The notes under the pieces: generated by a model
What the model was told of the DNA's origin: nothing
The model's input: only the letters and a program-made list of their open reading frames with translations
Databases searched by the model: none
In this document: positions 4,224 to 54,436 of the stretch, piece after piece
Position numbering within the stretch: the stretch's first letter is position 1
How the letters are laid out: every line of letters begins with the position of its first letter
Assembly: GCA_043799675.1 (NCBI GenBank)
Contig: JAZDNN010000024.1
Coordinates: forward strand, 7,418 to 71,417
DNA length: 64,000 nucleotides
Origin: Candidatus Aenigmatarchaeota archaeon
GTDB lineage: Archaea; Aenigmatarchaeota; Aenigmatarchaeia; Aenigmatarchaeales; JACQIB01
Direction: 5' to 3'
Translations under genes and position numbers: made by a program

Positions 4224-4400
4224 TGGTGCGCCGACAGGGATTCTCATAGCACTGCAACCCGAAGGCTGCCAAAACGCCTCTTGGCGCTTCGCGCTCATTT
4301 GAACCCTGGTCATCAGCTATCCTCTTTCTGGTGCAGGTCTTTGCCGTCAGGCAAAGAAGTGCCATGGAAGGCTGAGGTCCTACCACTAGACTATCGGCGC
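4224..4400 (-). tRNA. tRNA-Gly(UCC) candidate, about 177 nt, with a canonical 37/38 intron (about 46 nt) and a T-loop intron (about 55 nt)
   Basis: minus strand reads GCGCCGA-TA-GTC..GAC-C-TCAGC-CTTCCA[intron]A-GCTGA-TGAC-CAGGG-TTCAAAT[intron]CCCTG-TCGGCGC-A-CCA; acceptor, D, anticodon (UCC) and T stems all pair once two insertions are removed. Confidence 0.65.
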
Positions 4401-4430
4401 AGAGAAGCTTTGCGCACGACCCTCAAAAGC

Positions 4431-5123
4431 TTATTGCTTGCGGTAGAAAAGGTACGAGCGGCTCCTGGAAACGTCGGCCCTGTATTCGAGACCTATGTCC
4501 AGTTCCTTCATCGCGGCCTCGCTGACGATGACATTCATGTTGGTCCCGTCGTTGTCGGGCGCGGTCAGGCCGGCCCACTGGCTGTTCTTTATGTTGTCTA
4601 TGACCATCAGCCCGCCGCGGTTCATGTTCTTCGCCATGTTGGCCACGGCAAGCAGCCTCTGGCCGTCGATATCAGTGTCCGACCCGTTCCCTATGTGCTC
4701 GAAAACGTTGAGGCATTCGACATAATGGAAGGGGCCCAATCCGCTCAGGTCGGCGGTGACTATGTCACCCTGCACGCAATTGGTGCGAAGGCCGCCTCTT
4801 TCCCTGGCTTCCTCAAGCGCGGCGGCATCCACGTCCAAAACGTGTACCACGAAATCCTTCTCGTATTCCGCGAACTTCCTTGCAAGCTCCACGTGGCGGA
4901 TTGCGCACGTCTTGTCCTGGGCGGACTTCTTACCGACCCCAACAAGGAGGGCGTTCATCTCTCCACCGACGTTGTGAAGGAAACCGTCCAGATAGTCGTC
5001 CACCTTCAGATGTCTGTCCGGATATGAAACGTCAGAAATCATGTCAAGCGAATGGGGCCTGTAACTTCCCCTCACTTTCTCCTGCCACTCAGGCGTCAGA
5101 AGCGCTGCCATGCTTATATTCAC
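4431..5123 (-). CDS. class I SAM-dependent methyltransferase-like protein
   Basis: LNVFEHI motif typical of the class I MTase C-terminal region; 230 aa. Confidence 0.45.
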   Translation of the reverse strand: MNISMAALLTPEWQEKVRGSYRPHSLDMISDVSYPDRHLKVDDYLDGFLHNVGGEMNALLVGVGKKSAQDKTCAIRHVELARKFAEYEKDFVVHVLDVDAAALEEARERGGLRTNCVQGDIVTADLSGLGPFHYVECLNVFEHIGNGSDTDIDGQRLLAVANMAKNMNRGGLMVIDNIKNSQWAGLTAPDNDGTNMNVIVSEAAMKELDIGLEYRADVSRSRSYLFYRKQ

Positions 5124-5148
5124 TGTGTAGTAGTATATAAAGTTATCC

Positions 5149-5586
5149 TTACTCGAGCGCTTTCCGTATCATGTCGGCGGCCTTCTCCATCTGCTCCTTG
5201 GACATCTGCTTGCGGGCGGTCCAATTGATGGCCTCCCCGTGGCCGTCATCTGCAAAGCGGGGGATGAGATTTATGTGAGCGTGCTGGACCAGCTGGCCGA
5301 CCGCCGCCCCGACCACCCATTCTGTGCCCAGGCCCTTCTGCATCGCCTTCGCCACCTTCCTGGCAAACTCGAAATAGGATCCGGCATCCGGGATGTCCCA
5401 GACCCAGCGGCAGTGGTCCTTCGGAATGACAAGCACGTGGCCGGGATTCAGCGGGGTTATGTCAAGGAACGCTTCGAAATCCCCGTCCTTGCAGATGCTG
5501 AAGGACGGTACCTTGCCTTCCACGATCCTGCAGAAGACGCAGTTGGGGTCCCTCTTGGCGCTCGGATGTGGCTTGTATTCGGGCAT
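5149..5586 (-). CDS. HIT family hydrolase
   Basis: histidine triad HAHINLIP, about 145 aa. Confidence 0.8.
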   Translation of the reverse strand: MPEYKPHPSAKRDPNCVFCRIVEGKVPSFSICKDGDFEAFLDITPLNPGHVLVIPKDHCRWVWDIPDAGSYFEFARKVAKAMQKGLGTEWVVGAAVGQLVQHAHINLIPRFADDGHGEAINWTARKQMSKEQMEKAADMIRKALE

Positions 5587-5590
5587 ACGC

Positions 5591-5881
5591 TCACTTCAGC
5601 AGATAGGCATAAAAATGCGTGCTATCCGGAAAGATCGAGAGAATGAACTTTTCGGCTTCTGCAACATCCTTGGACTGAGGGGAAATCTTCCGCCAATTGT
5701 TTTGGAAGAATTCGTCGCCAAGGTCAAAGGGGACGACACTGCCTATAGACTTTCGCAGAATACGGCGACCGCACTGGAAGACCGCATTTTCACCATGAAG
5801 CAGGCGGGTGCGGACCTCGATGGTCTTGCTGCCGGCCTCCAGCGTCTCGAACACCGGCTTGTACACGCGGAACAACGGCAT
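5591..5881 (-). CDS. ASCH domain protein
   Basis: YKPVFETLEAGSKTIEVRTR resembles the ASCH N-terminus; start trimmed to an internal ATG because the upstream extension overlaps a tRNA. Confidence 0.45.
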   Translation of the reverse strand: MPLFRVYKPVFETLEAGSKTIEVRTRLLHGENAVFQCGRRILRKSIGSVVPFDLGDEFFQNNWRKISPQSKDVAEAEKFILSIFPDSTHFYAYLLK

Positions 5882-5882
5882 A

Positions 5883-6046
5883 TGGTGGGGTCGGAGAGAT
5901 TTGAACTCCCGTCCGCTGGTATCACCATCGGGCAATCATCACGGTCATATTTGGCCGCTCATCGCTCCAGCAACATTCTGGAGCCAGCTATCCTGCCTGG
6001 CTTTGTCAGACGCAAGACCTAACTTGCGCCTTTAGACTACGACCCC
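5883..6046 (-). tRNA. intron-containing tRNA (about 164 nt, at least 2 introns, anticodon unresolved)
   Basis: 5' GGGGTCG pairs with 3' CGACCCC-A-CCA; T arm GGGAG-TTCAAAT-CTCTC; internal hairpins interrupt the D and anticodon regions. Confidence 0.55.
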
Positions 6047-6253
6047 ATTGCTTTCAGAGGACGGGAGTATAAAAAGCGGAGTGGAGCCTTTAGTCTCCAC
6101 GCCACTTGCGAAACCCAAAAAAAGGTGGAGTGGAGCCTCGGGAGGGAATTGCACCCTCGACCTGCTGTTTGCTTGGTTGCTTACAAGACAGCCGCTCTTC
6201 TGCCTGAGCCACCGAGGCAAGAGATTTAATAGGCCGAGTCTTAAAAGCTTGGC

Positions 6254-6952
6254 ATGAAAGCAAGGGTCTCGGTCGTGGTTTGCGCAAGGAACGAGGAGAA
6301 GGTCATAGGAGCCTGCCTGGAAGCGCTCAAGAAACAGACGGCCTGCCCGGAGATAATCGTCATTGACGGACACTCGACGGACAGGACCAGGGAGATAGCC
6401 AAGAAGCATGCGGACAGGGTCATCCTGGACAACGGGAAGGGAATAGGGGATGCGAGGAACATCGGCTGGAAGGCGGCAACACACGGAATAGTGGCCTTTT
6501 GCGATGCGGATGCGAGACCGCCGCCGGACTGGGTGGAGAACATAGGAAAGCTGATTGACGACAACGCGGCCGTCAACGGGCCCCTCGTGCCTTACGATGC
6601 GCACAGATTCAGGACAAAGCTCACGATGAAGATATGGACGGACATTTTTTTGAGGGCGGGCTCGGCTGTCAGATACCCTATAGTGTGCGCGGCCAATGTG
6701 GCTTTCAGGAAAAGCATGCTGGAAAAGTATCCGTTCAGGCTCAACGCGCCCACCGAAGACTTCGATGTGGGCAGGAGGATGAGGCACGCGGGCAGGATAA
6801 GGTTCTTCAGCGAACTCCGTATGCCCATATCCGGCAGGAGATTCGAGAACAAGTTCTACAGGCGGACGGCCGTGATTTACCTAAGGAACTATTTCAGGGT
6901 CACGGTAGGGAAGGAAGCGAAGGACTTCGGATATTTCGAAAACAAGGGCTAG
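6254..6952 (+). CDS. family 2 glycosyltransferase
   Basis: N-terminal GT-A fold signature (VVVCARNEE, IDGHSTDRT, DADA). Confidence 0.8.
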   Translation: MKARVSVVVCARNEEKVIGACLEALKKQTACPEIIVIDGHSTDRTREIAKKHADRVILDNGKGIGDARNIGWKAATHGIVAFCDADARPPPDWVENIGKLIDDNAAVNGPLVPYDAHRFRTKLTMKIWTDIFLRAGSAVRYPIVCAANVAFRKSMLEKYPFRLNAPTEDFDVGRRMRHAGRIRFFSELRMPISGRRFENKFYRRTAVIYLRNYFRVTVGKEAKDFGYFENKG

Positions 6953-7326
6953 AACAGGAGAATTATCCATATCGTAAGGGCTATCAGGAAGCCCGAACCG
7001 AACGCTATGCCGAGCGGTATCTCGATGGGGACGCGTCCGCAGACATCATAGAGACAGGACTTCTGATACTTCCACCAGCCCTTCCCTGTCCCCCAAAGCT
7101 CCCATAAAATGTCAACGATGAAGGCGATGACACCGAATTCTACCATCAGCACAGACCTCAGTACCGCAAATGCAAAAGAGAAGAAAATCACGGCGATGAT
7201 CAGTCCCTTCAACAGGAAGGTCTGCTCGCTCTTCAGGAGCAGATATTCCGGTCTTTTCAACGCAAGCCTGTACTCGTGCCTGAGGGCGTCATACTTCCGC
7301 TTCAGCAACCGGTAATCCCGCATCAT
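6949..7326 (-). CDS. membrane protein, tandem paralog 2
   Basis: basic coiled N-terminus plus 2-3 TM helices; paralogous to the upstream ORF; start set to an internal ATG to avoid overlap. Confidence 0.45.
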   Translation of the reverse strand: MMRDYRLLKRKYDALRHEYRLALKRPEYLLLKSEQTFLLKGLIIAVIFFSFAFAVLRSVLMVEFGVIAFIVDILWELWGTGKGWWKYQKSCLYDVCGRVPIEIPLGIAFGSGFLIALTIWIILLF

Positions 7327-7327
7327 A

Positions 7328-7717
7328 TCACAACCCGAACATCCTGACAAGCACGAATGTGGCAAGGGAGGCCCCGGAGAAGAAATAGAAGACCGGTATC
7401 CCTATCGGCACCCTTCCGGCAATCATGTGCACTGAGTTCTCGTAGTTCCAGCGGCCGTTCTTGGTCGCGTACAACTCCATCACGAGCTCGCCGGCGGATA
7501 TCAGCGCACCCATTATGAAAATCACCGGATGATGATACCAGACGATGCCGAACACCGCGATTACCAGGAACGGGATGACCAGGGACCGCTTGCTCACAAG
7601 GGCGACCCTCTTTCTGGTAGGGAGGCGCCTTTCGTACCTTGCCCTCAGGTTCTTGTAGCGGATCTTCAGCTCCGCATATTTGCGCTCGAGCTTCCGGTAT
7701 GCGGCATCCATCTCCAT
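7328..7717 (-). CDS. membrane protein, tandem paralog 1
   Basis: same architecture and GRVPIGIP motif as the neighbour. Confidence 0.45.
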   Translation of the reverse strand: MEMDAAYRKLERKYAELKIRYKNLRARYERRLPTRKRVALVSKRSLVIPFLVIAVFGIVWYHHPVIFIMGALISAGELVMELYATKNGRWNYENSVHMIAGRVPIGIPVFYFFSGASLATFVLVRMFGL

Positions 7718-7807
7718 AAGAGACCTGTTTCGGCGGCGGGCTTATAAAAATAGCTGAACGGCCGGAAGGGTTATAAGAGTTCTGGCAGCGTTATTGAAGC
7801 GAAATGT

Positions 7808-9124
7808 ATGGGGTATGACCTGGTCATAGCGGGCTGCGGAACGGCCGGAGCGGCCGCGGCCCTGACTGCGGCAAAAGCGGGGCTGAAAGTCTGCGTCGTA
7901 GAACGGAAGGACAGGGCGGACATAGGAAGGAAGACCTGCGGGGACGCAATCCACGTGGACCACCTCGAATTCGCAAAAAAGCTCGGCGTGCAGTTCGGTG
8001 AGAAGGAGCTCCTTAACAAGATAACCGGAATGTACCTGATTGCGCCGAACAAGAAGGACATGATTTACGTCGAGGACGAGGGATACTGCGTAAACAGGCG
8101 GTTGTTCGGGCAGAAGCTCGTTTCCGAGGTGGAAAAGGAAGCCAAGCTGCTGAAGGTCAGCGCGATGGGACCCATCGTCGACGGGGAGAAGGTCACCGGA
8201 ATAATCACGGACAGGGGAAGGCTTGATGCGACCGTCACCATCGATGCGACCGGAGTGACGGGCATCCTGAGAAAGCAGATACCTTTCCAGACCGATTTCC
8301 CGAAGGAGATGCAGGTCAACGATTTTGCAAAGGCCTACAGGGGCATAGTGCAGATAGAAGGCGAGTTCGATACGCCGCAGGCGATCAAGATAGAATTCAA
8401 CAACGAAGTGGCTCCCGGAGGTTACATCTGGTATTTCCCGAAGGCAAAGAACGTCCTGAACATCGGAATAGGGCTGAAAGGAAATTCTTCCGCACAGGAG
8501 AACTACAACAAGTTCGTGGCAAGCCAGTTCGGAATAATAAAAGTGCTGGACGCGTCCGCATGGGCGCTGCCGATAAGGCGGCCGCTGGACGGGTTCGTGG
8601 CCAACGGTTTCATGATAATAGGGGATACCGCCTCACAGGTCAACCCGCTGGACGGGGCGGGAATAGGCTATTCGATGCGCGGCGGGGCGATGGCGGCCGA
8701 AGCCGCAACAGAAGCGGGAGAGCAACCGACACGGGAGAGGCTGTGGAAATACAACCACCGGTTCCAGACCGAAATAGGGATCAAGCACGTGCAATCGGCG
8801 ATATTCGTGGAAGCGCTTGCTTCTTTGAGCAACGAGGACCTGAACTTCGTTTTCGGTAAGAAACTGATAAACACGGACGACATTAAGCGGTCCTACACCG
8901 GCAGCATGAAGCTCAGCACTGCGCAAAAACTGAAGAAGGTGATGGCCGGGGCGGGAAGGCCGGAAGTGCTGTCCAAGCTCTACAAGGTGGTGAGCCTGGC
9001 CAACGAGGCCAAAGAACACTACAAACGGTATCCTGAAACGCCTGCAGACCTGCCGATGTGGGCCGCACTCTCCAAACGAATATTCGAAAGGTCGGCACAG
9101 GCGTTCCCGGCTTTCGGCACGTGA
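7808..9124 (+). CDS. geranylgeranyl reductase family FAD-dependent oxidoreductase
   Basis: N-terminal GxGxxG FAD fold (DLVIAGCGTAGAAAA), CGDAI motif; 438 aa. Confidence 0.8.
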   Translation: MGYDLVIAGCGTAGAAAALTAAKAGLKVCVVERKDRADIGRKTCGDAIHVDHLEFAKKLGVQFGEKELLNKITGMYLIAPNKKDMIYVEDEGYCVNRRLFGQKLVSEVEKEAKLLKVSAMGPIVDGEKVTGIITDRGRLDATVTIDATGVTGILRKQIPFQTDFPKEMQVNDFAKAYRGIVQIEGEFDTPQAIKIEFNNEVAPGGYIWYFPKAKNVLNIGIGLKGNSSAQENYNKFVASQFGIIKVLDASAWALPIRRPLDGFVANGFMIIGDTASQVNPLDGAGIGYSMRGGAMAAEAATEAGEQPTRERLWKYNHRFQTEIGIKHVQSAIFVEALASLSNEDLNFVFGKKLINTDDIKRSYTGSMKLSTAQKLKKVMAGAGRPEVLSKLYKVVSLANEAKEHYKRYPETPADLPMWAALSKRIFERSAQAFPAFGT

Positions 9125-9128
9125 TGAG

Positions 9129-10193
9129 ATGGAAAACGAACGGATGTGGTCGCTGGACACCTCGACCAAGGTAAAGGGCCTGACCTGGTGGTGGTGGTGG
9201 TGGCTTTTCTTCATCGACAACCCTTCGAACCCAGCAAGGCCGAGGCAGTTGATGATACTGTGGTCGACCAAGAACTGCAAGAAAGTAAGGATTGACGATT
9301 ATGATTGGAAACGGAAGCATGATGCGCAGAAAGAAGGCAATAACCTGAAGTTCAACGGGATGGCCGCGGCCTGGTACTTCGATGGGAAGCAGATGCACGA
9401 CCCCCTGCTGCTGGACGAGCACGAGCTAAAGGCAGAATGGTCTGACAATGCCGGAAAACTACATACTGATGGGGCAACAAGGCTGTTCGAGGGCAATGAC
9501 AAGGAATACAAGGTCAAGATAGAGCACAACGGACAGAACTTCGACTTCAAGCTGTTGCCGTGGACAAATTTCCAGTCGGAGCCGCATTATTCCGGGCGGA
9601 AATATGTAGGCAAGCTGGGCTACGACATCCTGAAAGTCCGCGGAGTAAAACTTGATGGAAAGATAAACGGAGAGCATGTGACAGGCACTGCATACTTCCA
9701 GAAGGTGATGGTGAACGCCCCTGCGGTGCCGTGGTACTGGGGCATGTTCCATTTCGAGGACGGCTCCTACTTCGATTATTTCATGCCACACGTGGGACTG
9801 CAGTGCCTCAGGAGGTCTGATAAACCGAAGAGCGCGTGGGACCGCGGGCATGTGTTCATGGCACGGAATGCACAATTTTTCCATGAGCCGACCGGGAAGC
9901 ATTACACGTTCAAGAAAGCGGGAATCAAAAAACTGGTCGAGAACGGCCTGCCGATATTCCAGCTGACTGCCAAAGAGAACGGAGTCAGCATCAAGGCAAA
10001 CATGGCGGCATACAGCCGCGCATGCTGGAGGTTCGAGCAGAAAGCCTTGGGGCTCAAGACGAAGCTGTTCTACAACGAATATCCCACGGAGATGCTGGAA
10101 TTCGAGCTGAAGGATAAGGAAAGGACAATTACCAAGAAAGAACTTGGTCAGAGCAAAGGCAACACGGAGCATGCATGGGGGACGCTGGCGTAA
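9129..10193 (+). CDS. CrtC/AttH-like (hydroxyneurosporene synthase family) lipocalin-fold protein
   Basis: N-terminal W-rich motif LTWWWWWWLFF resembles the EWWYF signature of CrtC hydratases; about 350 aa as in the family. Confidence 0.45.
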   Translation: MENERMWSLDTSTKVKGLTWWWWWWLFFIDNPSNPARPRQLMILWSTKNCKKVRIDDYDWKRKHDAQKEGNNLKFNGMAAAWYFDGKQMHDPLLLDEHELKAEWSDNAGKLHTDGATRLFEGNDKEYKVKIEHNGQNFDFKLLPWTNFQSEPHYSGRKYVGKLGYDILKVRGVKLDGKINGEHVTGTAYFQKVMVNAPAVPWYWGMFHFEDGSYFDYFMPHVGLQCLRRSDKPKSAWDRGHVFMARNAQFFHEPTGKHYTFKKAGIKKLVENGLPIFQLTAKENGVSIKANMAAYSRACWRFEQKALGLKTKLFYNEYPTEMLEFELKDKERTITKKELGQSKGNTEHAWGTLA

Positions 10194-10232
10194 GTCATAG
10201 AGCATAAATACTCTTCGGCAGCTAATCTTTCC

Positions 10233-10889
10233 ATGATAAAATTCATCATCAACGGCGACGACTTCTGTGCAAGCAAGGTGTTCAACGGGAAAATACTGAA
10301 TCTCCTCGAAAAGGGCTACATCAAATCGACCACCGTCATGGTCAACAGGGTCACCGAGGAACAGGAAGGGCAGATAAGGCAGCTATCCAGGCTATACAAT
10401 GAAAGAATAGTAGGTGTCGGACTTCACCTTGAGTACGACGAAAAACTACCGGTCCGCAAAGCCGTCGAATCGCAATACGGGAGATTCGTCAGAATTTTCG
10501 ACTGCCCGCCTAGCCACATCGATTTTCATAAGGGAAGGGGCATGCCGGAGGCCCAATTCATTAAGATGTTCACGGCCGGCGACAAGTTCGCAAAGGAGCA
10601 CGGCCTTCCCGCAAGGAATCGCGGGACGGCAATGACGGCAAGACACACCGCCTATCCGGCATTCATGTGCAAGGACATAACCCTGGATTTCGAGGAAGTG
10701 ACGGGATTTCTCCTTGGCGTGAAGGACGGCAGCAGCTGTGAGCTGATAACCCATCCGGGCGAATATGACCCCTTCAGCAAATCCAGCCGGAACAGGGAAA
10801 GGAAAGTGGACTATGACGTCATAGTCAGGCTGCAGGACTTCCTCAAGACGCACCCGAATTTCAGGAACATCAGCTATCTTGAGCTGTAG
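10233..10889 (+). CDS. YdjC/ChbG-like carbohydrate deacetylase family protein
   Basis: GLHL and ITHPGEYD motifs. Confidence 0.5.
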   Translation: MIKFIINGDDFCASKVFNGKILNLLEKGYIKSTTVMVNRVTEEQEGQIRQLSRLYNERIVGVGLHLEYDEKLPVRKAVESQYGRFVRIFDCPPSHIDFHKGRGMPEAQFIKMFTAGDKFAKEHGLPARNRGTAMTARHTAYPAFMCKDITLDFEEVTGFLLGVKDGSSCELITHPGEYDPFSKSSRNRERKVDYDVIVRLQDFLKTHPNFRNISYLEL

Positions 10890-10898
10890 AGAATTAGA

Positions 10899-11151
10899 TG
10901 GTGTCGGGGATGGGGTTTCCAGTGAACTTCGTTCACAGTCAAGCGAACGGAGTTCCGCTTTGAACCCACGACCTCGCGATCTCTCACAGACTCATAGCTC
11001 CGCCGCAAGCGGCAAATTGCTTTTGCCACCTTCGGTGGTTAAGCGAGTCTCAAATCTCATAATCTTGTTATGAGTCGCGCGCTTTTGGTTATCGAATCTA
11101 CCAGGCTTTGCCGGCTGCATGACGCATCATGCGACCATGAGCCACCCCGAC
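10899..11151 (-). tRNA. tRNA with at least 3 introns (about 253 nt, anticodon unresolved)
   Basis: perfect 7-bp acceptor GTCGGGG/CCCCGAC-A-CCA; D-arm pieces GCTCA..GCC-TGGT-AGA..GAGC separated by insertions (one 31 nt); T arm GTGGG-TTCAAA[insert]CCCAT. Confidence 0.5.
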
Positions 11152-11182
11152 TGTTCTGATTGAATGCAAGAATTCAAATAGG

Positions 11183-11623
11183 TTAGCCAAAGCTCTCGAG
11201 GGGCGGCATTACCCGGGTGTTTCCGTCCCACAGGCCGAAATAGTTCCGGAAGAGCGGGTCATGAACCTTTGGCCTCAGTTTTCCATAATTGGTATGTCTG
11301 AATATCTTTTCGATTGCAGCAGCCTTCGCCGCCCTTTCTTTTATTTTATCCCTGCTGACGTCGAACCCGCAGACGAAGCATTTCAGGTAATAATCCGTCC
11401 CGATGGAATCCTTCCCGGTGAACACCTTCACCATGCCCAGCGGGAATTCCGACGACGGGATGCCCTCGTCCGGCCACCCGTTGGAAGGCTCCGCTTCCAG
11501 CTCGGCGGAAATCGCGTTCTTGACCATGTCGTAAACGATGCCGTTCTTTTCGTGCTTCTTGCCAACGGGCGTCAACGAGCCGCATCTCATGCAGGGGTCC
11601 TTGGTCAGCCAGTACATCAACAT
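11183..11623 (-). CDS. hypothetical protein
   Basis: ORF trimmed to an internal ATG because the annotated N-terminus overlaps the tRNA at 11654-11850. Confidence 0.35.
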   Translation of the reverse strand: MLMYWLTKDPCMRCGSLTPVGKKHEKNGIVYDMVKNAISAELEAEPSNGWPDEGIPSSEFPLGMVKVFTGKDSIGTDYYLKCFVCGFDVSRDKIKERAAKAAAIEKIFRHTNYGKLRPKVHDPLFRNYFGLWDGNTRVMPPLESFG

Positions 11624-11653
11624 CGTTGTGTGAGAAAGGGATAAATCGACGAG

Positions 11654-11850
11654 TGGTGGGCCCAACGGGACTCTCGTAGCACTGCCGCGCTGGCGGCAAA
11701 AGCGCTTTTGGCGCTTCGCGCTCATTCGAACCCGCGACCTACCGGTTTCTCCAGTCACCGAACCAAAATGATGGTTCTCTTTTGGCTCCATTAAGAGCCG
11801 GTCGCTGATGGCTTGGTTTTAACCAATCTACCAGACTGAGCTATGAGCCC
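11654..11850 (-). tRNA. tRNA with multiple introns (about 197 nt); its T-loop intron is near-identical to that of tRNA-Gly
   Basis: GGGCTCA-TA-GCTC-AGTCTGGTAGA..; 3' end GCGGG-TTCGAAT[GAGCGCGAAGCGCCAA...GTGCTACGAGAGT]CCCGT-TGGGCCC-A-CCA. Confidence 0.55.
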
Positions 11851-11884
11851 GAACTATTCAGAAGTCGCGGAGTATTAAAAGCCT

Positions 11885-13547: not shown

Positions 13548-14774
13548 ATGTACAGTATGAAAAACCCGAATTTGGTTGAGGCGGCCACCAAACCCGATAT
13601 AAGGTTCAACCCGAAGCGCTACACGTATAGTGTAGACCATCATTACTTCAAGATGTGGACGCCTCAAATGGCGTATATTTTAGGGTTCGTGTTTGCGGAC
13701 GGCGGAATAGAAAGGAACAATACGACCCTTGCCTTTGAGTTGCAGATGCGGGATAAAGAGATTTTACGAAAAATAAGAGCGGCTCTAAAATCTACCCATC
13801 CGATTTCAGCGACCAAAGCAGGCGAGTATGTACGATTACGGATCAATAGCCGTCAAATAGTTGACGATTTGAAGAAGCTTGGAGTAACGCATAATAAAAG
13901 CAAAGATTGCACATGTCCAGATATCCCTCAGCGGCTGTTGCCGCACTTCGTGAGAGGGTTCGTGGACGGTGATGGCTGGATTATTCAAAGAACCGGCAAT
14001 AACAGACATGAAATAAGCGCGGGTTTCTGCCATGGTTCTAAGGGGTTCCTTAGATCGCTGGTAAATCAGATTCGAGCGGCGCTTGATATCAAGGCATTTA
14101 ATCTACGGGCTAAGTATAAGGCAACTAGCAGCGGCAAGAGGTCGTGCACATATAGCATAGAATGGTATTCACACAACGCGTCGAAATTTTTAGATTGGAC
14201 ATACAAAGACGCAGACATCTTCTTGAAAAGAAAATACCAAAGCTATCTGAGAAGCAAACGGCTTTTTGAGGAGTTTTCTTCAAAAACGCGGCTTTGGAGA
14301 AAGGTCGAAACCAAACACAGAATGCCGCTAAGAGCCATCCTCGACGGCATGTTGGCCCGGGGTTCGAGCACCTGTCAGATTTCGGGGAATGTCGGAGTTT
14401 CATCGGCTACGATTTACAGGTGGTTAGACAAAACTGACATAAGGAAACCGGTGAAGAGGGTGTCCAAAGCGCCTGTTCTCATGAAGTGCCAGACCTGCGG
14501 TGACATTTTCAGAAAGTTTAAAGAAAACGCCAGCTATTGCTCACTTTCCTGTGCGGCGAAACATATGGCAGTTTCTAGATTGTCTGGGAACAACGTCACG
14601 TGCGCTGCATGCGGTAAACGTGTTTATAGGCCGAACTGGTGGTTTGCGATAAACAGTCGCGCCTTCTGTTCCAATAGTTGTCACGGGAAATGGCAAGAGA
14701 CCCGTTTGGCGACCAATTCGCTGCAACGCTGCAGGACCGATGGCCGCTTCCTTCCTGCTTCAGGGAGGCTATAG
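13548..14774 (+). CDS. free-standing double-motif LAGLIDADG homing endonuclease with C-terminal HTH and Cys-rich zinc-binding region
   Basis: motifs ILGFVFADGGI and FVRGFVDGDGWI about 100 aa apart. Confidence 0.8.
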   Translation: MYSMKNPNLVEAATKPDIRFNPKRYTYSVDHHYFKMWTPQMAYILGFVFADGGIERNNTTLAFELQMRDKEILRKIRAALKSTHPISATKAGEYVRLRINSRQIVDDLKKLGVTHNKSKDCTCPDIPQRLLPHFVRGFVDGDGWIIQRTGNNRHEISAGFCHGSKGFLRSLVNQIRAALDIKAFNLRAKYKATSSGKRSCTYSIEWYSHNASKFLDWTYKDADIFLKRKYQSYLRSKRLFEEFSSKTRLWRKVETKHRMPLRAILDGMLARGSSTCQISGNVGVSSATIYRWLDKTDIRKPVKRVSKAPVLMKCQTCGDIFRKFKENASYCSLSCAAKHMAVSRLSGNNVTCAACGKRVYRPNWWFAINSRAFCSNSCHGKWQETRLATNSLQRCRTDGRFLPASGRL

Positions 14775-47861: not shown

Positions 47862-48353
47862 TTGGACTGGCGCAAGGCATTTCACGACCGGTCATTTAAG
47901 AGCCGGAAAACAAAGCTGCTCATGCCGAAGTTCAGGTTCATTCCCGAGATAGCGATAGCTGATGTAGCCTTCGAAGCGGAAGGTAAGGACATCAATGAGC
48001 TGTTTGTGAACTGCGCCCTTGCAACCGAGGAATCCATGGTCAACACAAAGAAGGTGAAGCCGAAGGTCAGCAAGACCATAAAGCTGGAAGCGGATGCGCT
48101 GGACAGACTGATGATTGACTGGCTGAACGAGGTGATTTACTACAAGGACGCGGAGGGGCTGCTGTTTTGTGAATTCATCGTCAAGGTATTGCAAAAGGGA
48201 AAGAACTGGACGCTTGAAGCCACGGCAAAGGGCGAAAAGAGGGACCCGAAGAAGCACGAGCTCAGGGCGGATGTGAAGGCGGCGACTTGGCACCTTTTTG
48301 AACTGAAGCAGGAAAAGGGCAAGTGGAAAGCGAGGATTGTAGAGGATATCTGA
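47862..48353 (+). CDS. archease (RtcB activator)
   Basis: FIPEIAIADVAFEAEGKDINELFVNCALA matches the archease N-terminal signature. Confidence 0.6.
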   Translation: MDWRKAFHDRSFKSRKTKLLMPKFRFIPEIAIADVAFEAEGKDINELFVNCALATEESMVNTKKVKPKVSKTIKLEADALDRLMIDWLNEVIYYKDAEGLLFCEFIVKVLQKGKNWTLEATAKGEKRDPKKHELRADVKAATWHLFELKQEKGKWKARIVEDI

Positions 48354-50210: not shown

Positions 50211-51795
50211 ATGGAGCAGGAACCTGAAAAGCAGACAGGCAGTCTGCCGAAGGAAATCAAGAAAATCAGCGAGGTCGTCTGGGAACTGCCCACCAGCTAC
50301 AAGAAAGGCATGCGCGTGCCGGCAAGAATATATGCGACCAAGAAGCTGCTCGATGCGATGGACGCGGGAGTGTTCGAGCAGGTCACCAACGTCGCGACCC
50401 TGCCGGGAATCGTCAAGCATGCGTTCTGTATGCCGGATGGGCACTGGGGTATGGGTCAAGTCGCGGCTTGATTCACTCAAATATGGGTTCCCAATCGGCG
50501 GCGTGGCTGCATTCGACCCGAAGGTCGGCGTGATCAGCCCGGGCGGCATCGGGTTCGACATCAACTGCGGCATGAGGTTCGTCACTACCAACCTTACTGT
50601 CAAGGACGTCAAACCCAAGCTGAAAGAACTGGTGGATATCCTGTTCAGGACGGTTCCCGCGGGCGTGGGCGGGGAAGGGTTTGTAAAATTAAGCCGCAGC
50701 CAATTCGACGAAATAATGGTCCAAGGGGCCAATTGGGTCATCGAGCACGGCTACGGTTGGAAAGAGGACACGGAAAGAATAGAGGAGTACGGCTGCATCA
50801 AAGGTGCTGATCCGTCAAAGGTCAGCGACAAGGCAAGGACCAGAGGCATCACGCAGATGGGGACGCTCGGCTCAGGGAACCATTACCTGGAAATCCAGAC
50901 TGCCGAGAAAATTTTCCTTCCCGAAGTCGCAGAGGCATTCGGCGTGAACGAACAGGGGCAGATAGGGGTGATGGTGCACTGCGGCTCGAGGGGGTTCGGC
51001 CACCAAATCGGAACGGATTATCTCAGGATATTCGACATGGCAATGAAGAAGTACAACATCACGGTGCCTGACAGGGAGCTTGCCTGTGCGCCTTTTGCGA
51101 GCCAGGAAGGACAGGATTATTATCACGCGATGGCCTGCGCGGCAAACATGGCTTTTGCCAACAGGCAGGTGATTTTGCACAGGATACGCGAGGCTTTTGC
51201 AAAGGTGTTCAGGAAATCCCCCGAAGACATGGAAATGCACCTGGTGTACGATGTCGCGCACAACGTGGCCAAGGTGGAGAAACACCTGGTCGACGGTCAT
51301 GAAAAGGAACTGGTGATGCACCGGAAGGGGAGCACGCGCTGCTTCGGTCCGGGTAGGCCGGAGATTCCTGAAGCTTACCGCAAGGTCGGCCAGCCGGTGA
51401 TTGTGGGCGGCAGCATGGAAACGGGCAGCTTTTTGTGCGTGGGCACGGACAAGGCTCTGACAGAAACATGGGGAAGCACCATGCACGGCGCGGGCAGAAC
51501 CATGAGCAGGACTTCAGCGAGGAACCAGGGCTCGGGCTTGGCGTTGCAGAAGAAGATGGCCAAGGAAGGGATACTGGTGGAAGCCACGAGCATGAGCGGG
51601 CTTGCAGAGGAAGCGGGCTTTGCCTACAAGGACCTGAACGAAGTGGTCGAGACCATGGAAATCGCGGGCGTGAGCAGGAAGGTCGTTCTGCTGAGGCCTT
51701 TGGGTAATATTAAAGGCACCGCCCGGGCCTCATACAGCCTTTTAGCTTTCCCCATACTTGTCATGGTCTTGGCCTTGATTTCGTCCCTTATCTGA
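50211..51795 (+). CDS. rtcB: tRNA-splicing ligase RtcB, interrupted by a 31-nt frame-breaking insertion (candidate BHB mRNA intron about 50451-50481); C-terminus extended past the usual ...IKG end
   Basis: N-terminal ORF (50211-50471) ends ...AFCMPDGHWGMG*; second frame continues YGFPIGGVAAF...; deleting the 31 nt restores MPDGHWGYGFPIGGV. Confidence 0.8.
50451..50481 (+). other. 31-nt insertion in rtcB (candidate archaeal BHB-type mRNA intron, or pseudogenising indel)
   Basis: flanked by direct repeat TATGGG; exon UGGG (ending 2 nt before the junction) pairs with intron CUCA 2 nt before the 3' junction; internal hairpin UCAAG/CUUGA. Confidence 0.5.
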
Positions 51796-52859
51796 ACGAT
51801 AAGCGGTTCGACCTGTTTCCACCTCGTGATGTTCTTGCCGATTATTTCGAGAATCAATTCCTTTTTGGCCGTTTTCTCGGGATGCCTCAACGGCAGCAAT
51901 TCGAGCATCCGACGGACATCGGCCTTCCTGAAGATTTCTAAGGCGAAATAATCCTTGCTGTATCTTATACTGACCCCATGAGTGTCTCTGCCGTCCCCGC
52001 GCCTGAAAATCCTGTATAGAATTGGATTAAAGCCCTGTTCCCTTAGTTGCCGTTTTATCCTACCAAGCAAGGTTTTATTTTCGGTGCCTATCCGCATACA
52101 ACACTGCAAATTTTCCCTGATTTTCTTGACCAGAAGCGACCCTTCCGCATCGAAGTAGCCGGCCAGGAACGACAGGAAAACATTCCGTTCGGATTCGACC
52201 AACTCTGAAATCAATCGTTTCCTGTTTTCCAGCAAGAGGAAGTCGAAGCTGTTGTCGAGGTCTGCGGATGTCGTCCACATGTAATTTCCAAAAGTTCTGT
52301 TCTTCGCAGGATATGTCCTTACCTTCGCATATCCTTTGAACAGGCTCTCGAAGACATCCAGGAATCCTTCATGAGTCGTGTTGGTTATGGCCCGAATGGT
52401 ATGCTTCGATCTTCTGAAGGCTGTCACATCACCCTCCACGAAACCAACCATGTAAGCCTTTTCTTCATCCTTTCCATCAAAACTTTGCCGTTCATGTTTC
52501 CTGTTTGTCAGCAGGATAGCCTCATCGTTTCCACGCACCCGAAAGCCGTTTTCTTCCAGCACCTTATGCAACGTGCCTTTGGAAGAACCAAATTTCTTGG
52601 CCAGCTTTTTCAACGATATTTTCTCCGTGTCATAAAGTCTCAGAATTTCCGTCACAGGCAGGTGTTTCCTGTGAGACAACGAATGTGCCTGACTGAGATT
52701 CCTTATCGGTATGTCAAGTTTGATGAACCGTTTTCTTACGGCCGACCACGATATATCGTCTCCGAGCTTAACACTCAATATCGCCGCCACTTCTTTGAAC
52801 GTCTTACCGGACGAATAGAGACTCTCGGCTTCCTTCAGGAGTTCGCTGTTCAGCTTCAT
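51624..52859 (-). mobile_element. free-standing LAGLIDADG homing endonuclease gene (HTH N-terminus, two LAGLIDADG motifs)
   Basis: YMVGFVEGDVT and FLSFLAGYFDAEGSL; 3' end overlaps antisense to the extended 3' end of rtcB. Confidence 0.7.
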
Positions 52860-52914: not shown

Positions 52915-53991
52915 CTAATCATGCAGAATACATCCAAAAATATTATTATACCTTCCAGCGAGCGCATTTCTCAACCTGAACGTGTCGCCCTGCGCCGCAT
53001 AGGCCATCCAGCCCTCAAGGCTTTTCGCAGCCTGTTCTGCCGAAATCTCACCGGATTCGTACTGCAGTCTGAGTGCCGTCATCCTTTTTTCGAGCTTCAG
53101 CAGGTTCCTCCTTTTTGGAATCCTGTAGTGGTAGAACACCCTGAAGCCGAGCAACGATATCCCCTTATGCAAAGGGTAGACCTGCGATTTTTCCTCATGC
53201 AACTCTAGCTTTAACCGTTGTTTGAGGAACCCGTTTATCCCGCTCCTGAACTGCATCAGCGCGGCCTCAGACCTGTCCAGAATCACGAAGTCATCTACAT
53301 ACCGGAGATAGAACCTTGCCTTAAGCACGTGCTTCACGAAATGGTCCAGCTCATTCAGGTAGACGTTCGCGAAGAACTGGCTCGTCTGATTGCCTATCGG
53401 CATCCCCTTCGGCAGGGCAGGGTCGTTGTTCGACAGGATTTTCCGTACCAGCCAGAGCACGCTTTCGTCCCTTATTTTTCTCCGTATGATGCCAATCAGG
53501 ACATCGTGGTCGACGCTCGGGAAATAGTGCCTTATGTCGGCCTTCAGTGCATAGCCGACCACCATGTTGTTGTCCTTCGCGCCGTGCACCAAACGGCCGT
53601 TCCCGGAAACCTTTCGCTTGAAGCAATCAAACCTGTCCAATGCTGCCAGGCCGCCCTTTCCCTTCCTGTTGGCGTAGCTGTCGTGGATGAACGTTTTGTC
53701 GAAAATCGGTTCGAGCACGTTGCATAACGCATGATGGACAACACGGTCCCTGAAATGCGAGGCATGAATTACCCGTGTCTTGGGGTCGCGGATGATGAAC
53801 CGTTTCAACGGGCGCGGCGAATACGTACGATTTTCAAGCTCAGTTTTCAAATCTGCCAATTCGCCATCAAGATTAGCTTCGAATCTTTTGACATACCATT
53901 TCTTCGACTTGCCCTTCCTCGCCTTTCTGAATGCCAGCAAAAGGTTCTCTGGCGAGCAGACCTTTCCGTAAAGGTTGTCAAATGTTTTCAA
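52915..53991 (-). CDS. diversity-generating retroelement reverse transcriptase
   Basis: RT motifs including the DGR-specific motif-4 IGNQTSQ (IGxxxSQ) and YVDD; about 358 aa, no maturase or endonuclease domain; TTG start. Confidence 0.85.
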   Translation of the reverse strand: MKTFDNLYGKVCSPENLLLAFRKARKGKSKKWYVKRFEANLDGELADLKTELENRTYSPRPLKRFIIRDPKTRVIHASHFRDRVVHHALCNVLEPIFDKTFIHDSYANRKGKGGLAALDRFDCFKRKVSGNGRLVHGAKDNNMVVGYALKADIRHYFPSVDHDVLIGIIRRKIRDESVLWLVRKILSNNDPALPKGMPIGNQTSQFFANVYLNELDHFVKHVLKARFYLRYVDDFVILDRSEAALMQFRSGINGFLKQRLKLELHEEKSQVYPLHKGISLLGFRVFYHYRIPKRRNLLKLEKRMTALRLQYESGEISAEQAAKSLEGWMAYAAQGDTFRLRNALAGRYNNIFGCILHD

Positions 53992-54196: not shown

Positions 54197-54436
54197 TTTC
54201 GGTAGCCTCTCCACCGACATGACACCGCGGCTTCAATCTTCGGGAACCTACCAACTGAAACCGCTGAATTTAATGGCACAAGCATTCGGACGGCATGAAA
54301 TGCCATCGCACCATCTTGCGCTCTATGGAAAGGCGTATAGCGCGGGCCTTTGCCGGGAGAATGAAATACCCGCCCCCCGATTGGGAAGGAAAGAACTCTG
54401 TCATGCAAAAATTGAGGGACGAAACGATTTATGCGC

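Follow-up and report, generated by a model that had tools for sequence, protein, structure and literature searches.

Here, we describe five neighbouring tRNA loci in a 64-kb stretch of archaeal DNA (64,000 nucleotides (nt) of contig JAZDNN010000024.1 from a Candidatus Aenigmatarchaeota archaeon, hereafter the window). Their sequence makes it very probable that these loci are functional tRNA genes of an Aenigmatarchaeota-like DPANN archaeon that are interrupted by archaeal bulge–helix–bulge (BHB) introns, and that one intron family, found at position 59/60 in the T-loop and designated F1, was copied between tRNAs. The tRNA region was read on both strands, and the four genes claimed by the original prediction, each with two to four introns, all lie on the minus strand, as do their introns. 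A custom scan of the window, which required a 7-bp acceptor stem, a 5-bp T-stem adjoining the start of the T-loop, and an encoded CCA, returned exactly the claimed intervals, together with one evident false positive within a long open reading frame (ORF). The four genes are tRNA-Gly(TCC) at 4224–4400 (177 nt), tRNA-Trp(CCA) at 5883–6046 (164 nt), a tRNA with the anticodon CAT at 10899–11151 (253 nt), and tRNA-Lys(CTT) at 11654–11850 (197 nt). None of them was called by ARAGORN, run with and without its intron options, or by Rfam at the gathering threshold, and over the whole window these programs returned only the fifth gene, tRNA-Thr(TGT), at 6131–6218 on the same strand (88 nt, one intron; Rfam tRNA score of 50.9 bits). 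A tmRNA "match" at 5883–6046 was rejected, as it merely reflected the tRNA-like ends of the Trp gene.

The defined inserts were then deleted in silico, and the spliced products were submitted to ARAGORN, which called Gly(tcc) with 74 nt, Trp(cca) with 76 nt, Thr(tgt) with 76 nt, Met(cat) with 77 nt, and Lys(ctt) with 77 nt. The ARAGORN check proposed for the four claimed genes was, accordingly, negative for the unspliced window and positive for all four spliced forms. All five products form clean cloverleafs with the universal tRNA positions intact and with a discriminator base and an encoded CCA at the 3' end. After splicing, the intron counts agree with the claimed range (two in Gly, two in Trp, four in the CAT gene, and three in Lys, 11 altogether), and the single Thr intron brings the number to 12 in five neighbouring genes. 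The CAT gene has a G1-C72 pair and lacks the G29-31 run, which identifies it as a non-initiator tRNA of the elongator Met or Ile2 type (Met below).

Two further observations concern the Thr gene. Its T-loop reads TGCAATT, with G replacing the universal U55, and this form is kept in three relatives (among them L011, 2152–2290, and L012, 1024–1135; relatives are designated here by the L numbers of their contigs) and is therefore a lineage trait and not damage; the Thr genes of L001 and L003 have a normal TTCRAAT T-loop. In addition, the 12-mer AGGCTCCACTCC spans the 3' end of tRNA-Thr (6127–6138, minus strand), and a second copy lies 49 nt downstream (6078–6089), just before the TATA-like box of the Trp gene.

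The splice sites were assigned by a BHB rule in which the 4 nt before the last two exon nucleotides pair with the 4 nt before the last two intron nucleotides, with both cuts placed after the second base of a 3-nt bulge and a 4-bp central helix between the bulges. The BHB check proposed in the original prediction supported the predicted introns, as this geometry fits all splice sites and splicing restores the cloverleafs. The introns of the window occupy positions 14/15, 22/23, 37/38, and 59/60 (Sprinzl numbering). At the boundaries that restore the cloverleaf, the central helix is complete (4/4) in nine of the 12 introns and 3/4 in the other three; a random 4/4 helix is expected at about 2% per site, and nine of 12 at preset boundaries thus corresponds to a probability of about 1e-13 by our own arithmetic. 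The BHB-constrained folds lie within 0–3.2 kcal/mol of the unconstrained minimum free energy (MFE) structure for all 12 introns, and for several the MFE structure is the BHB fold. The introns at 37/38 and 59/60 have a 5-bp outer helix (the anticodon stem or T-stem) and 0–2 bp of directly adjacent inner helix, corresponding to the hBH type, while those at 14/15 and the Lys 22/23 intron have an inner helix without an outer one (HBh' type), and the 14-nt Met 22/23 intron has little of either. The strict hBHBh' form with both flanking helices, as required by the alpha4 and alpha'2 enzymes, is absent from most introns; relaxed hBH and HBh' forms have been described (PMC3239211). Eight introns from related loci fit the BHB geometry as well. 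That the inserts might instead be self-splicing group I or group II introns, or insertion-sequence fragments, has nothing in its favour beyond their interrupting genes, and it can be practically dismissed: they measure 12–88 nt, versus the >200 nt with a catalytic core expected of group I and group II introns, they match no Rfam intron family, and the BHB geometry is present throughout.

All five genes carry an intron at 37/38. The outer helix of these introns is 5 bp long, and they comprise a 46-nt intron in Gly (4319–4364; central helix CTTC/GAGG, 4/4; bulges CA↓T and AT↓A), a 57-nt intron in Trp (5921–5977; central helix 3/4), a 12-nt intron in Thr (6170–6181; CTTG/CAAG, 4/4), an 88-nt intron in Met (10981–11068; CTCA/TGAG, 4/4; inner helix of 2 bp), and a 45-nt intron in Lys (11747–11791; CTCT/GGAG, 4/4). 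At 14/15, the original prediction had noted a single D-loop insert of 31 nt; the length is correct, and both the Trp and the Met inserts have it. The Trp intron (6002–6032) forms an HBh' motif with a 3/4 central helix (GTC/GAC), bulges TA↓A and AA↓G, a 9-bp inner helix, and a 6-nt loop; the Met intron (11107–11137) has a 3/4 central helix and a 3-bp inner helix, and its end, CAAA↓GCC, resembles that of the Trp intron. The D-arm introns at 22/23 measure 14 nt in Met (11084–11097; TGGT/ACCA, 4/4; bulges AG↓A and AA↓A; the MFE fold is the BHB fold) and 21 nt in Lys (11807–11827; TGGT/GCCA, 4/4; inner helix of 5 bp). At 59/60, Met carries a 43-nt T-loop intron that does not belong to F1 (10916–10958; outer helix of 5 bp; TTCA/TGGA, 4/4), and Gly and Lys carry the F1 introns described below. 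A second BHB-like motif is nested in the Met 37/38 intron (10995–11038, minus strand; 44 nt, outer helix of 6 bp, central helix GCTT/GAGC, 4/4), at the place where the window has sequence beyond that of the approximately 40-nt introns in L003 and L001; this could be a nested intron or a chance match.

Among the relatives used for comparison were contigs with homologues of the geranylgeranyl reductase (GGR, 7808–9124) that adjoins the tRNAs, which were analysed by the same tRNA scan and by BLAST of the spliced tRNAs. Metagenomic GGR homologues are 97–56% identical to that of the window, a GGR protein search of the GTDB representative genomes returned no close relative, and the exact GGR sequence matched no protein record. 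Homologues of the RtcB ligase of the window proved too conserved to inform on taxonomy. Named homologues of the arginyl-tRNA synthetase (ArgRS) of the window are consistently annotated as "Candidatus Aenigmatarchaeota archaeon" (58–40% identity), and the window also encodes S19e, S8e, aIF5A, TFB, Rpo4/Rpb4, Trm1, and the CCA-adding enzyme in addition to ArgRS; taken together, these genes therefore indicate chromosomal DNA of an Aenigmatarchaeota-related DPANN archaeon.

Comparison with these relatives also bears on whether the genes are functional. Between the Lys genes of the window and L006, the flanks are approximately 92–93% identical, and the exons are identical at 77 of 77 positions, an outcome with a probability of about 0.002 at the flank rate (own arithmetic). 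All seven substitutions fall in the 22/23 and 37/38 introns, where four of them form two compensatory pairs, and the 22/23 intron displays a compensatory G-C to A-U change. The Gly gene and its syntenic counterpart in L001, a Gly(TCC) gene without introns, share 90.5% identity, and their T-stems differ by compensatory changes. TATA-like A/T-rich boxes, read by eye and without statistics, lie 22–30 nt upstream of the Trp, Lys, and Met genes (for Trp, TTTTTATA at 6068–6075, 22–29 nt upstream; for Lys, TTTTAATA at 11873–11880). The alternative, that the four intron-rich loci are decaying pseudogenes or relics and that the functional tRNAs are encoded elsewhere, would account for their being missed by standard predictors, and the rest of the genome, where such copies would lie, is unseen. 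Nevertheless, we consider it very improbable: exon conservation beside flanks that diverge by about 7%, the compensatory changes, and the TATA-like boxes form a strong argument against pseudogenes, and after splicing the universal positions and the CCA are intact, with a BHB at the needed boundaries of every insert.

The F1 introns of Gly and Lys are the pair that the original prediction had singled out as a near-identical T-loop intron of roughly 55 nt. They measure 57 nt in Gly (4241–4297, F1 A-type; the outer helix is the 5-bp T-stem, central helix TTCA/TGAG, 4/4) and 54 nt in Lys (11671–11724, F1 D-type; outer helix of 5 bp, central helix TTCG/CGAG, 4/4, inner helix AGCGC/GTGCT), in good agreement with the proposed length. 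The proposed start after TTCRAAT was off by one nucleotide, as the BHB geometry places the splice after A59 (59/60), i.e. after TTCRAA. Both introns begin TGAGCGCG and finish ...GAGAR, with the shared end GTGCTAYGAGAR. The 16-mer GAGCGCGAAGCGCCAA at their start occurs exactly twice in the window, at 4281–4296 and 11708–11723, both on the minus strand; the claimed position 4281 is correct, while 11722 is close to the end of the second match and not to its start. "Near-identical" proved too strong, since the two introns match at 45 of 57 positions (79%): the opening 17 nt agree throughout, the closing ~15 nt agree at all but two positions (Y and the final R), and the middle diverges. The likeness is still far beyond chance, as the alignment scores 31 and the best of 2000 shuffles reached 9, and the remaining intron pairs of the window fall well short of it.

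The MFE fold of F1 is a three-way junction. The inner helix AGCGC/GTGCT follows a G.A mismatch, hairpin 1 is AAGCGC(C)/(G)GCGYTT, and hairpin 2 is GCAGCC-UUCG-GGUUGC in Gly and GCCGC-CAGC-GCGGC in Lys. The differences in the middle of the intron are thus for the most part compensatory. At the 3' end, the conserved YGAG forms the intron side of the central helix and pairs with T54-T55-C56-R57 of the host. A metagenome scan with the pattern GAGCGCGAAGCGCN{16,46}GTGCTAYGAGA found F1 on five contigs, namely the Lys orthologue on L006 (93% identical), the Gly orthologue on L009 (98%), and three new hosts, Leu(GAG) on L007, Lys(TTT) on L008, and Asn(GTT) on L010, all with the intron at 59/60. Together with Gly(TCC) and Lys(CTT) of the window, these new hosts bring the tRNA species with F1 to at least five, and their T-stems differ. 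The exact pattern of T-loop plus intron start was absent from the GTDB representative genomes scanned, and a pattern scan of viral contigs found no copy. Among the F1 copies, 50 of 74 columns are invariant in a MAFFT alignment (A1); this alignment placed hairpin 2 out of structural register and was replaced by a manual, N-padded alignment (A2), in which 49 columns are invariant. Across the six distinct copies in A2, 98% of the cells are paired, and six pairs are changed on both sides, four of them in the host T-stem and two in intron hairpin 2. The pair between position 57 and the intron is found as A-U, G.U, and G-C, revealing that the intron strand of the central helix tracks the T-loop of its host. 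Together with the orthologues that lack F1 or carry a different intron (described below), the presence of F1 at 59/60 in these hosts bears out the intron mobility proposed in the original prediction.

The same prediction had raised a functional RNA embedded in the shared intron, and this alternative was weighed separately. Here, F1 would be maintained by selection as a stable functional RNA (a guide, a protein-binding RNA, or a circle) and would not have spread by mobility. The F1 intron of Lys is unchanged between the window and L006 at 54 of 54 positions, with a probability of about 0.01 at the flank rate, against a divergence of ~7% in the flanks and ~10% in the other two introns; the three-way junction with its UUCG-capped hairpin is conserved; and the same tRNA cluster offers a precedent in the C/D-like guide of the Trp 37/38 intron. 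An unchanged F1, however, fits either structural constraint or recent homogenisation between copies, and recent copying or gene conversion predicts high identity between copies equally well. The introns have no match in Rfam at E<=5 over both tRNA clusters, and the C box RUGAUGA and D box CUGA are not present in the F1 sequences. A box C/D sRNA was likewise rejected as a candidate identity for F1; Rfam gave no significant C/D match, the sole one (sR17, 15.9 bits, E=1.2) lying over the T-arm and the 37/38 intron. In addition, pairing with the T-loop explains the conserved 3' end, the stem formed by the conserved 5' and 3' parts is the BHB inner helix, and selection for a function leaves unexplained why F1 is absent from the orthologues in L001, L003, and L014 and why L004 carries the unrelated F2 family. 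A functional RNA embedded in F1 is therefore unlikely in our assessment, its conserved fold notwithstanding, and spread by mobility remains the preferred reading of the shared intron.

The Trp 37/38 intron differs from F1 in carrying guide features, with the guide GCTGGAGC, a D'-like ATGA box, and a C'-like GTGATGA box. The fifth nucleotide upstream of the D'-like box in the guide CTGGAGC pairs with C34, and the terminal C and D boxes appear degenerate. The boxes are kept in L001 (CTGA and CTGATGA, at about 6080–6150) and L011 (AATGA and CGATGA, 1251–1456). In Euryarchaeota, the tRNA-Trp intron holds a box C/D guide, as in the pre-tRNA-Trp of Haloferax volcanii, where it directs Cm34 and Um39. 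The arrangement of guide and C34 in the window resembles this system and is conserved in L001 and L011; unlike it, the guide here belongs to a DPANN lineage and its terminal boxes are degenerate, and the parallel applies to the Trp intron and not to the shared T-loop intron. A separate observation concerns the Trp orthologue of L001 (~6030–6250, minus strand), which seemingly has an insertion in the 5' acceptor strand (GGGG...TCG) and one in the D-arm in addition to that at 37/38, with approximate boundaries.

Across the relatives, the non-canonical introns come and go. In L001 (GGR 57% identical), Gly(TCC) and Thr(TGT) are intronless, and Met and Lys carry the 37/38 intron only, while in L003 (GGR 74% identical) Met has the 14/15 and 37/38 introns only and Thr those at 37/38 and 59/60. 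The Gly orthologue of L009, with flanks 98% identical, has a 37/38 intron of 13 nt versus 46 nt in the window, a difference that amounts to a 33-nt hairpin indel. The Trp 14/15 intron is absent from the L011 orthologue. A 31-nt intron homologous to that of Met at 14/15 is present in L003 (23 of 32 positions identical; inner helix of 11 bp), the Met introns at 22/23 and 59/60 are absent from both L003 and L001, and the ends of the Met 37/38 intron are homologous to the ~40-nt 37/38 introns of these two relatives. The orthologous tRNA-Lys(CTT) gene uses five insertion sites across close relatives: L001 and L014 have an intron at 37/38 only, L003 at 37/38 and 43/44 (30 nt), L004 and L005 at 19/20 (32 nt), 37/38, and 59/60 (41 nt), and the window and L006 at 22/23, 37/38, and 59/60 (F1). 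The Lys gene of L014 is that of L004 minus exactly the 32-nt 19/20 and 41-nt 59/60 introns; the remainder, including the 37/38 intron, is identical, and 58 of 60 upstream nucleotides match. The Lys 37/38 intron is homologous in L001, L003, L004, and L014, and recognisable homologues of the Lys, Met, and Trp introns at this site occur in all relatives. As judged from these sequences, the introns at 37/38 are ancient, whereas the non-canonical ones are recent and are quickly gained and lost.

Two further families were identified at 59/60, F2 in Thr of L003, Lys of L004, and Asp of L008, and F3 in Tyr of L008 and Thr of L012. The intron strand of F3 is TGAG where the host T-loop offers TTCA and TGCA where it offers the unusual TGCA, a compensatory change of the central helix; the latter case is L012 Thr, in which the 59/60 intron pairs with the T-loop through the self-complementary TGCA. 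All three families meet on one 13.7-kb metagenome contig, L008, which carries Lys(TTT) with F1, Asp(GTC) with F2, and Tyr(GTA) with F3 (7578–7825, 7858–7973, and 10518–10677, minus strand). In L008 Asp, the F2 strand CGAA faces TTCA, and the resulting A.C mismatch is what a recent transfer from a host with TTCG would be expected to leave.

Part of the splicing machinery is encoded in the window itself. Archease, the RtcB cofactor, lies at 47862–48353 on the plus strand (Pfam PF01951, E=7e-39), and the tRNA-splicing ligase RtcB at 50253–51795 on the same strand (Pfam RtcB, E=3.6e-157). The RtcB gene is interrupted by a 31-nt BHB-like insert at 50451–50481. A tblastn comparison with intact relatives gave a match split between frame 3 (residues 4–71) and frame 1 (residues 70–481), and deleting exactly these 31 nt (ATGGGTCAAGTCGCGGCTTGATTCACTCAAA) restores MPDGHWG↓YGFPIGGVAA. 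The insert has a 4/4 central helix (TGGG/CTCA) between the bulges GT↓A and AA↓T, and its inner helix measures 9 bp when counted by hand and 11 bp in the scan; read with 9 bp, its 1+9+6+9+4+2 layout is that of the 31-nt Trp 14/15 intron. On this evidence, the mRNA of the splicing ligase probably contains a BHB mini-intron of its own. A comparable suspicion for the CCA-adding enzyme, whose 600-aa ORF might have hidden an intron, was rejected, as the protein is colinear with its L001 homologue and the long ORF reflects an upstream over-extension.

Based on these observations, we propose that each gene would be transcribed as a long pre-tRNA in which, at every intron, the four exon nucleotides upstream of the 5' splice site would pair with the four intron nucleotides upstream of the 3' splice site. 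This pairing would set both cut sites in 3-nt bulges, where the endonuclease EndA would cleave, and the exons would be joined by the window-encoded RtcB and Archease. The exon strand of the central helix is T54-T55-C56-R57 at 59/60 and U-G18-G19-U at 22/23, both universal tRNA sequence, and at 14/15 it is the 5' D-stem strand G10-Y11-Y12 (GTC or GCT here), which is conserved but not universal. The intron would supply the complementary strand as its own "address", and, as it brings the complement of a conserved tRNA sequence, a cleavable motif could therefore arise in any host tRNA. F1 would have been copied into at least five tRNA species in this way, F2 and F3 are further 59/60 families found in related lineages, and the copies could have moved by gene conversion at the DNA level through the conserved T-arm or by reverse splicing followed by reverse transcription.

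With regard to the route of movement, and to this alone, we give slightly less than an even chance to a spread of F1, F2, and F3 that involves DNA alone, with gene conversion or recombination through the GGTTCRAAT...CC T-arm. Every copy of the three families occupies 59/60, where the adjoining sequence is the most conserved of the tRNA, the precise presence/absence alleles with identical flanks fit homologous recombination, and a DNA-level process is favoured for Thermoproteales in the published view (PMC4090602). The flanking homology is, however, short (~9 nt on the 5' side and 3–5 nt on the 3' side), T-stems vary from host to host, and the window contains a reverse transcriptase gene, though nothing links it to the introns. 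By either route, the broader proposal that the BHB introns of this clade are currently active, self-addressing mobile elements that are portable to any tRNA, and whose 31-nt architecture also entered the RtcB mRNA, is put forward tentatively, as a possibility that we regard as rather doubtful at present.

Several points weigh against our interpretation of the loci as functional genes with BHB introns and a mobile F1 family. The case for splicing comes from DNA sequence, and of this genome the analysis covered the window; the remainder may hold intronless duplicates. Most of the motifs are relaxed, with the outer or inner helix missing, and three central helices reach only 3/4. A generic BHB scan of the window was not enriched (53 matches versus 54–76 in shuffled sequences), and the motif is therefore informative only jointly with the restoration of the cloverleaf. 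No EndA (Pfam tRNA_int_endo), which the original prediction supposed to be of relaxed specificity, was found among the ~75 window ORFs scanned. The additional F1 copies come from two JGI metagenomes (Ga0315276 and Ga0315287) and possibly from one population; alignment A2 was fitted by hand to the proposed fold and contains only two F1 subtypes; and the direction of change among the compared sequences, i.e. gain versus loss, rests on parsimony.

Other genes of the window were also considered. The reverse transcriptase gene lies at 52915–53991 on the minus strand (Pfam RVT_1; group-II-like by NCBIfam, below the cut-off) and adjoins an Rfam RT-16 RNA at 54197–54373 on the same strand (57 bits, above the gathering threshold), for which no link to the tRNA introns was found. 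Two free-standing ORFs of ~410 residues, at 13548–14774 on the plus strand and 51624–52859 on the minus strand, gave weak LAGLIDADG_3 and helix-turn-helix matches (E=4e-7 and 3e-9). They are not mutual paralogues, have no NCBIfam identity, and nothing ties them to the introns; homing-endonuclease-like proteins of this kind could be relevant to a DNA-level spread of introns.

With 12 introns in five adjacent genes, and as many as four in a single one, the window adds an Aenigmatarchaeota-like DPANN archaeon to the lineages with heavily disrupted tRNA genes. The comparison with relatives offers an unusually clean view of intron turnover, with five sites in Lys, three families at 59/60, and an allele pair that differs by two introns. 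These findings also suggest a rule for hot sites, by which the exon half of the central helix is universal tRNA sequence at 22/23 and 59/60 and the 5' D-stem strand at 14/15. From a practical standpoint, standard annotation would miss four of the five tRNAs described here, and inferences on genome completeness and codon usage for such metagenome-assembled genomes would be wrong. If the introns are indeed active and mobile, this clade would be a natural system for studying the mechanism of archaeal intron transposition, with reverse splicing plus reverse transcription and endonuclease-stimulated gene conversion as candidates, because alleles that differ only by one or two precise introns coexist in related populations.

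The literature search found no report of such tRNA disruption in Aenigmatarchaeota, which are not among the lineages analysed in PMC3239211 and PMC5829648. Multi-intron tRNAs are real here, as the original prediction held; its statement that they define a lineage is too broad, as they are known from Thermoproteales, ARMAN, and Asgard archaea. A four-intron gene and a conserved shared intron are, accordingly, not new in kind; what is new is the lineage, the three competing families at 59/60, and the fine-grained presence/absence data. The maximum of three introns per tRNA gene is a figure from 2011 (PMC3239211), which the four-intron Met gene of the window exceeds. In the 2024 account of the Asgard Atabeyarchaeia and Freyarchaeia (PMC11291895), 92–95% of tRNA genes contain introns, with up to four per gene (Supplementary Data 4), including four-intron Ile2(CAT), Arg(TCT), and Trp(CCA), and tRNAscan-SE under-calls such genes. 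The same account places over half of the tRNAs in the multi-intron class, many with introns at non-canonical positions, much as in the window; it concerns another superphylum, and contains no description of intron sequence families or mobility. The window was also considered as a piece of one of these Asgard genomes, and this was rejected, since its tRNA lengths and spacing disagree with those tabulated for Atabeyarchaeia-2, Freyarchaeia, and part of Atabeyarchaeia-1, and since the named ArgRS homologues indicate Aenigmatarchaeota.

Within DPANN, the closest parallel is ARMAN-2 (Micrarchaeota), whose epsilon2 EndA cleaves a relaxed hBH intron at 59/60 in vitro (PMC3239211). DPANN alpha4 EndAs with an L3 loop have also been described, and inserts in EndA correlate with tRNA disruption (PMC5829648). 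The window resembles ARMAN-2 as a DPANN genome with relaxed hBH introns at 59/60; the ARMAN-2 intron is 13 nt long, whereas those described here are 36–57 nt, structured, and organised in families. In Thermoproteales, multi-intron tRNAs and similar introns in unrelated tRNAs were read as transposition (Sugahara 2008; Fujishima 2010), according to the summary in PMC4090602. Both features considered in criteria of the Fujishima 2010 type were found here, namely similar introns in unrelated tRNA bodies and their absence from orthologues in relatives. As in Thermoproteales, highly similar introns occupy tRNAs of different identity, and their gain is inferred after the lineages split. Unlike in Thermoproteales, which belong to TACK, the host here is an Aenigmatarchaeota-like DPANN archaeon, the families all sit at one site, 59/60, and presence and absence alleles are seen at the strain level.

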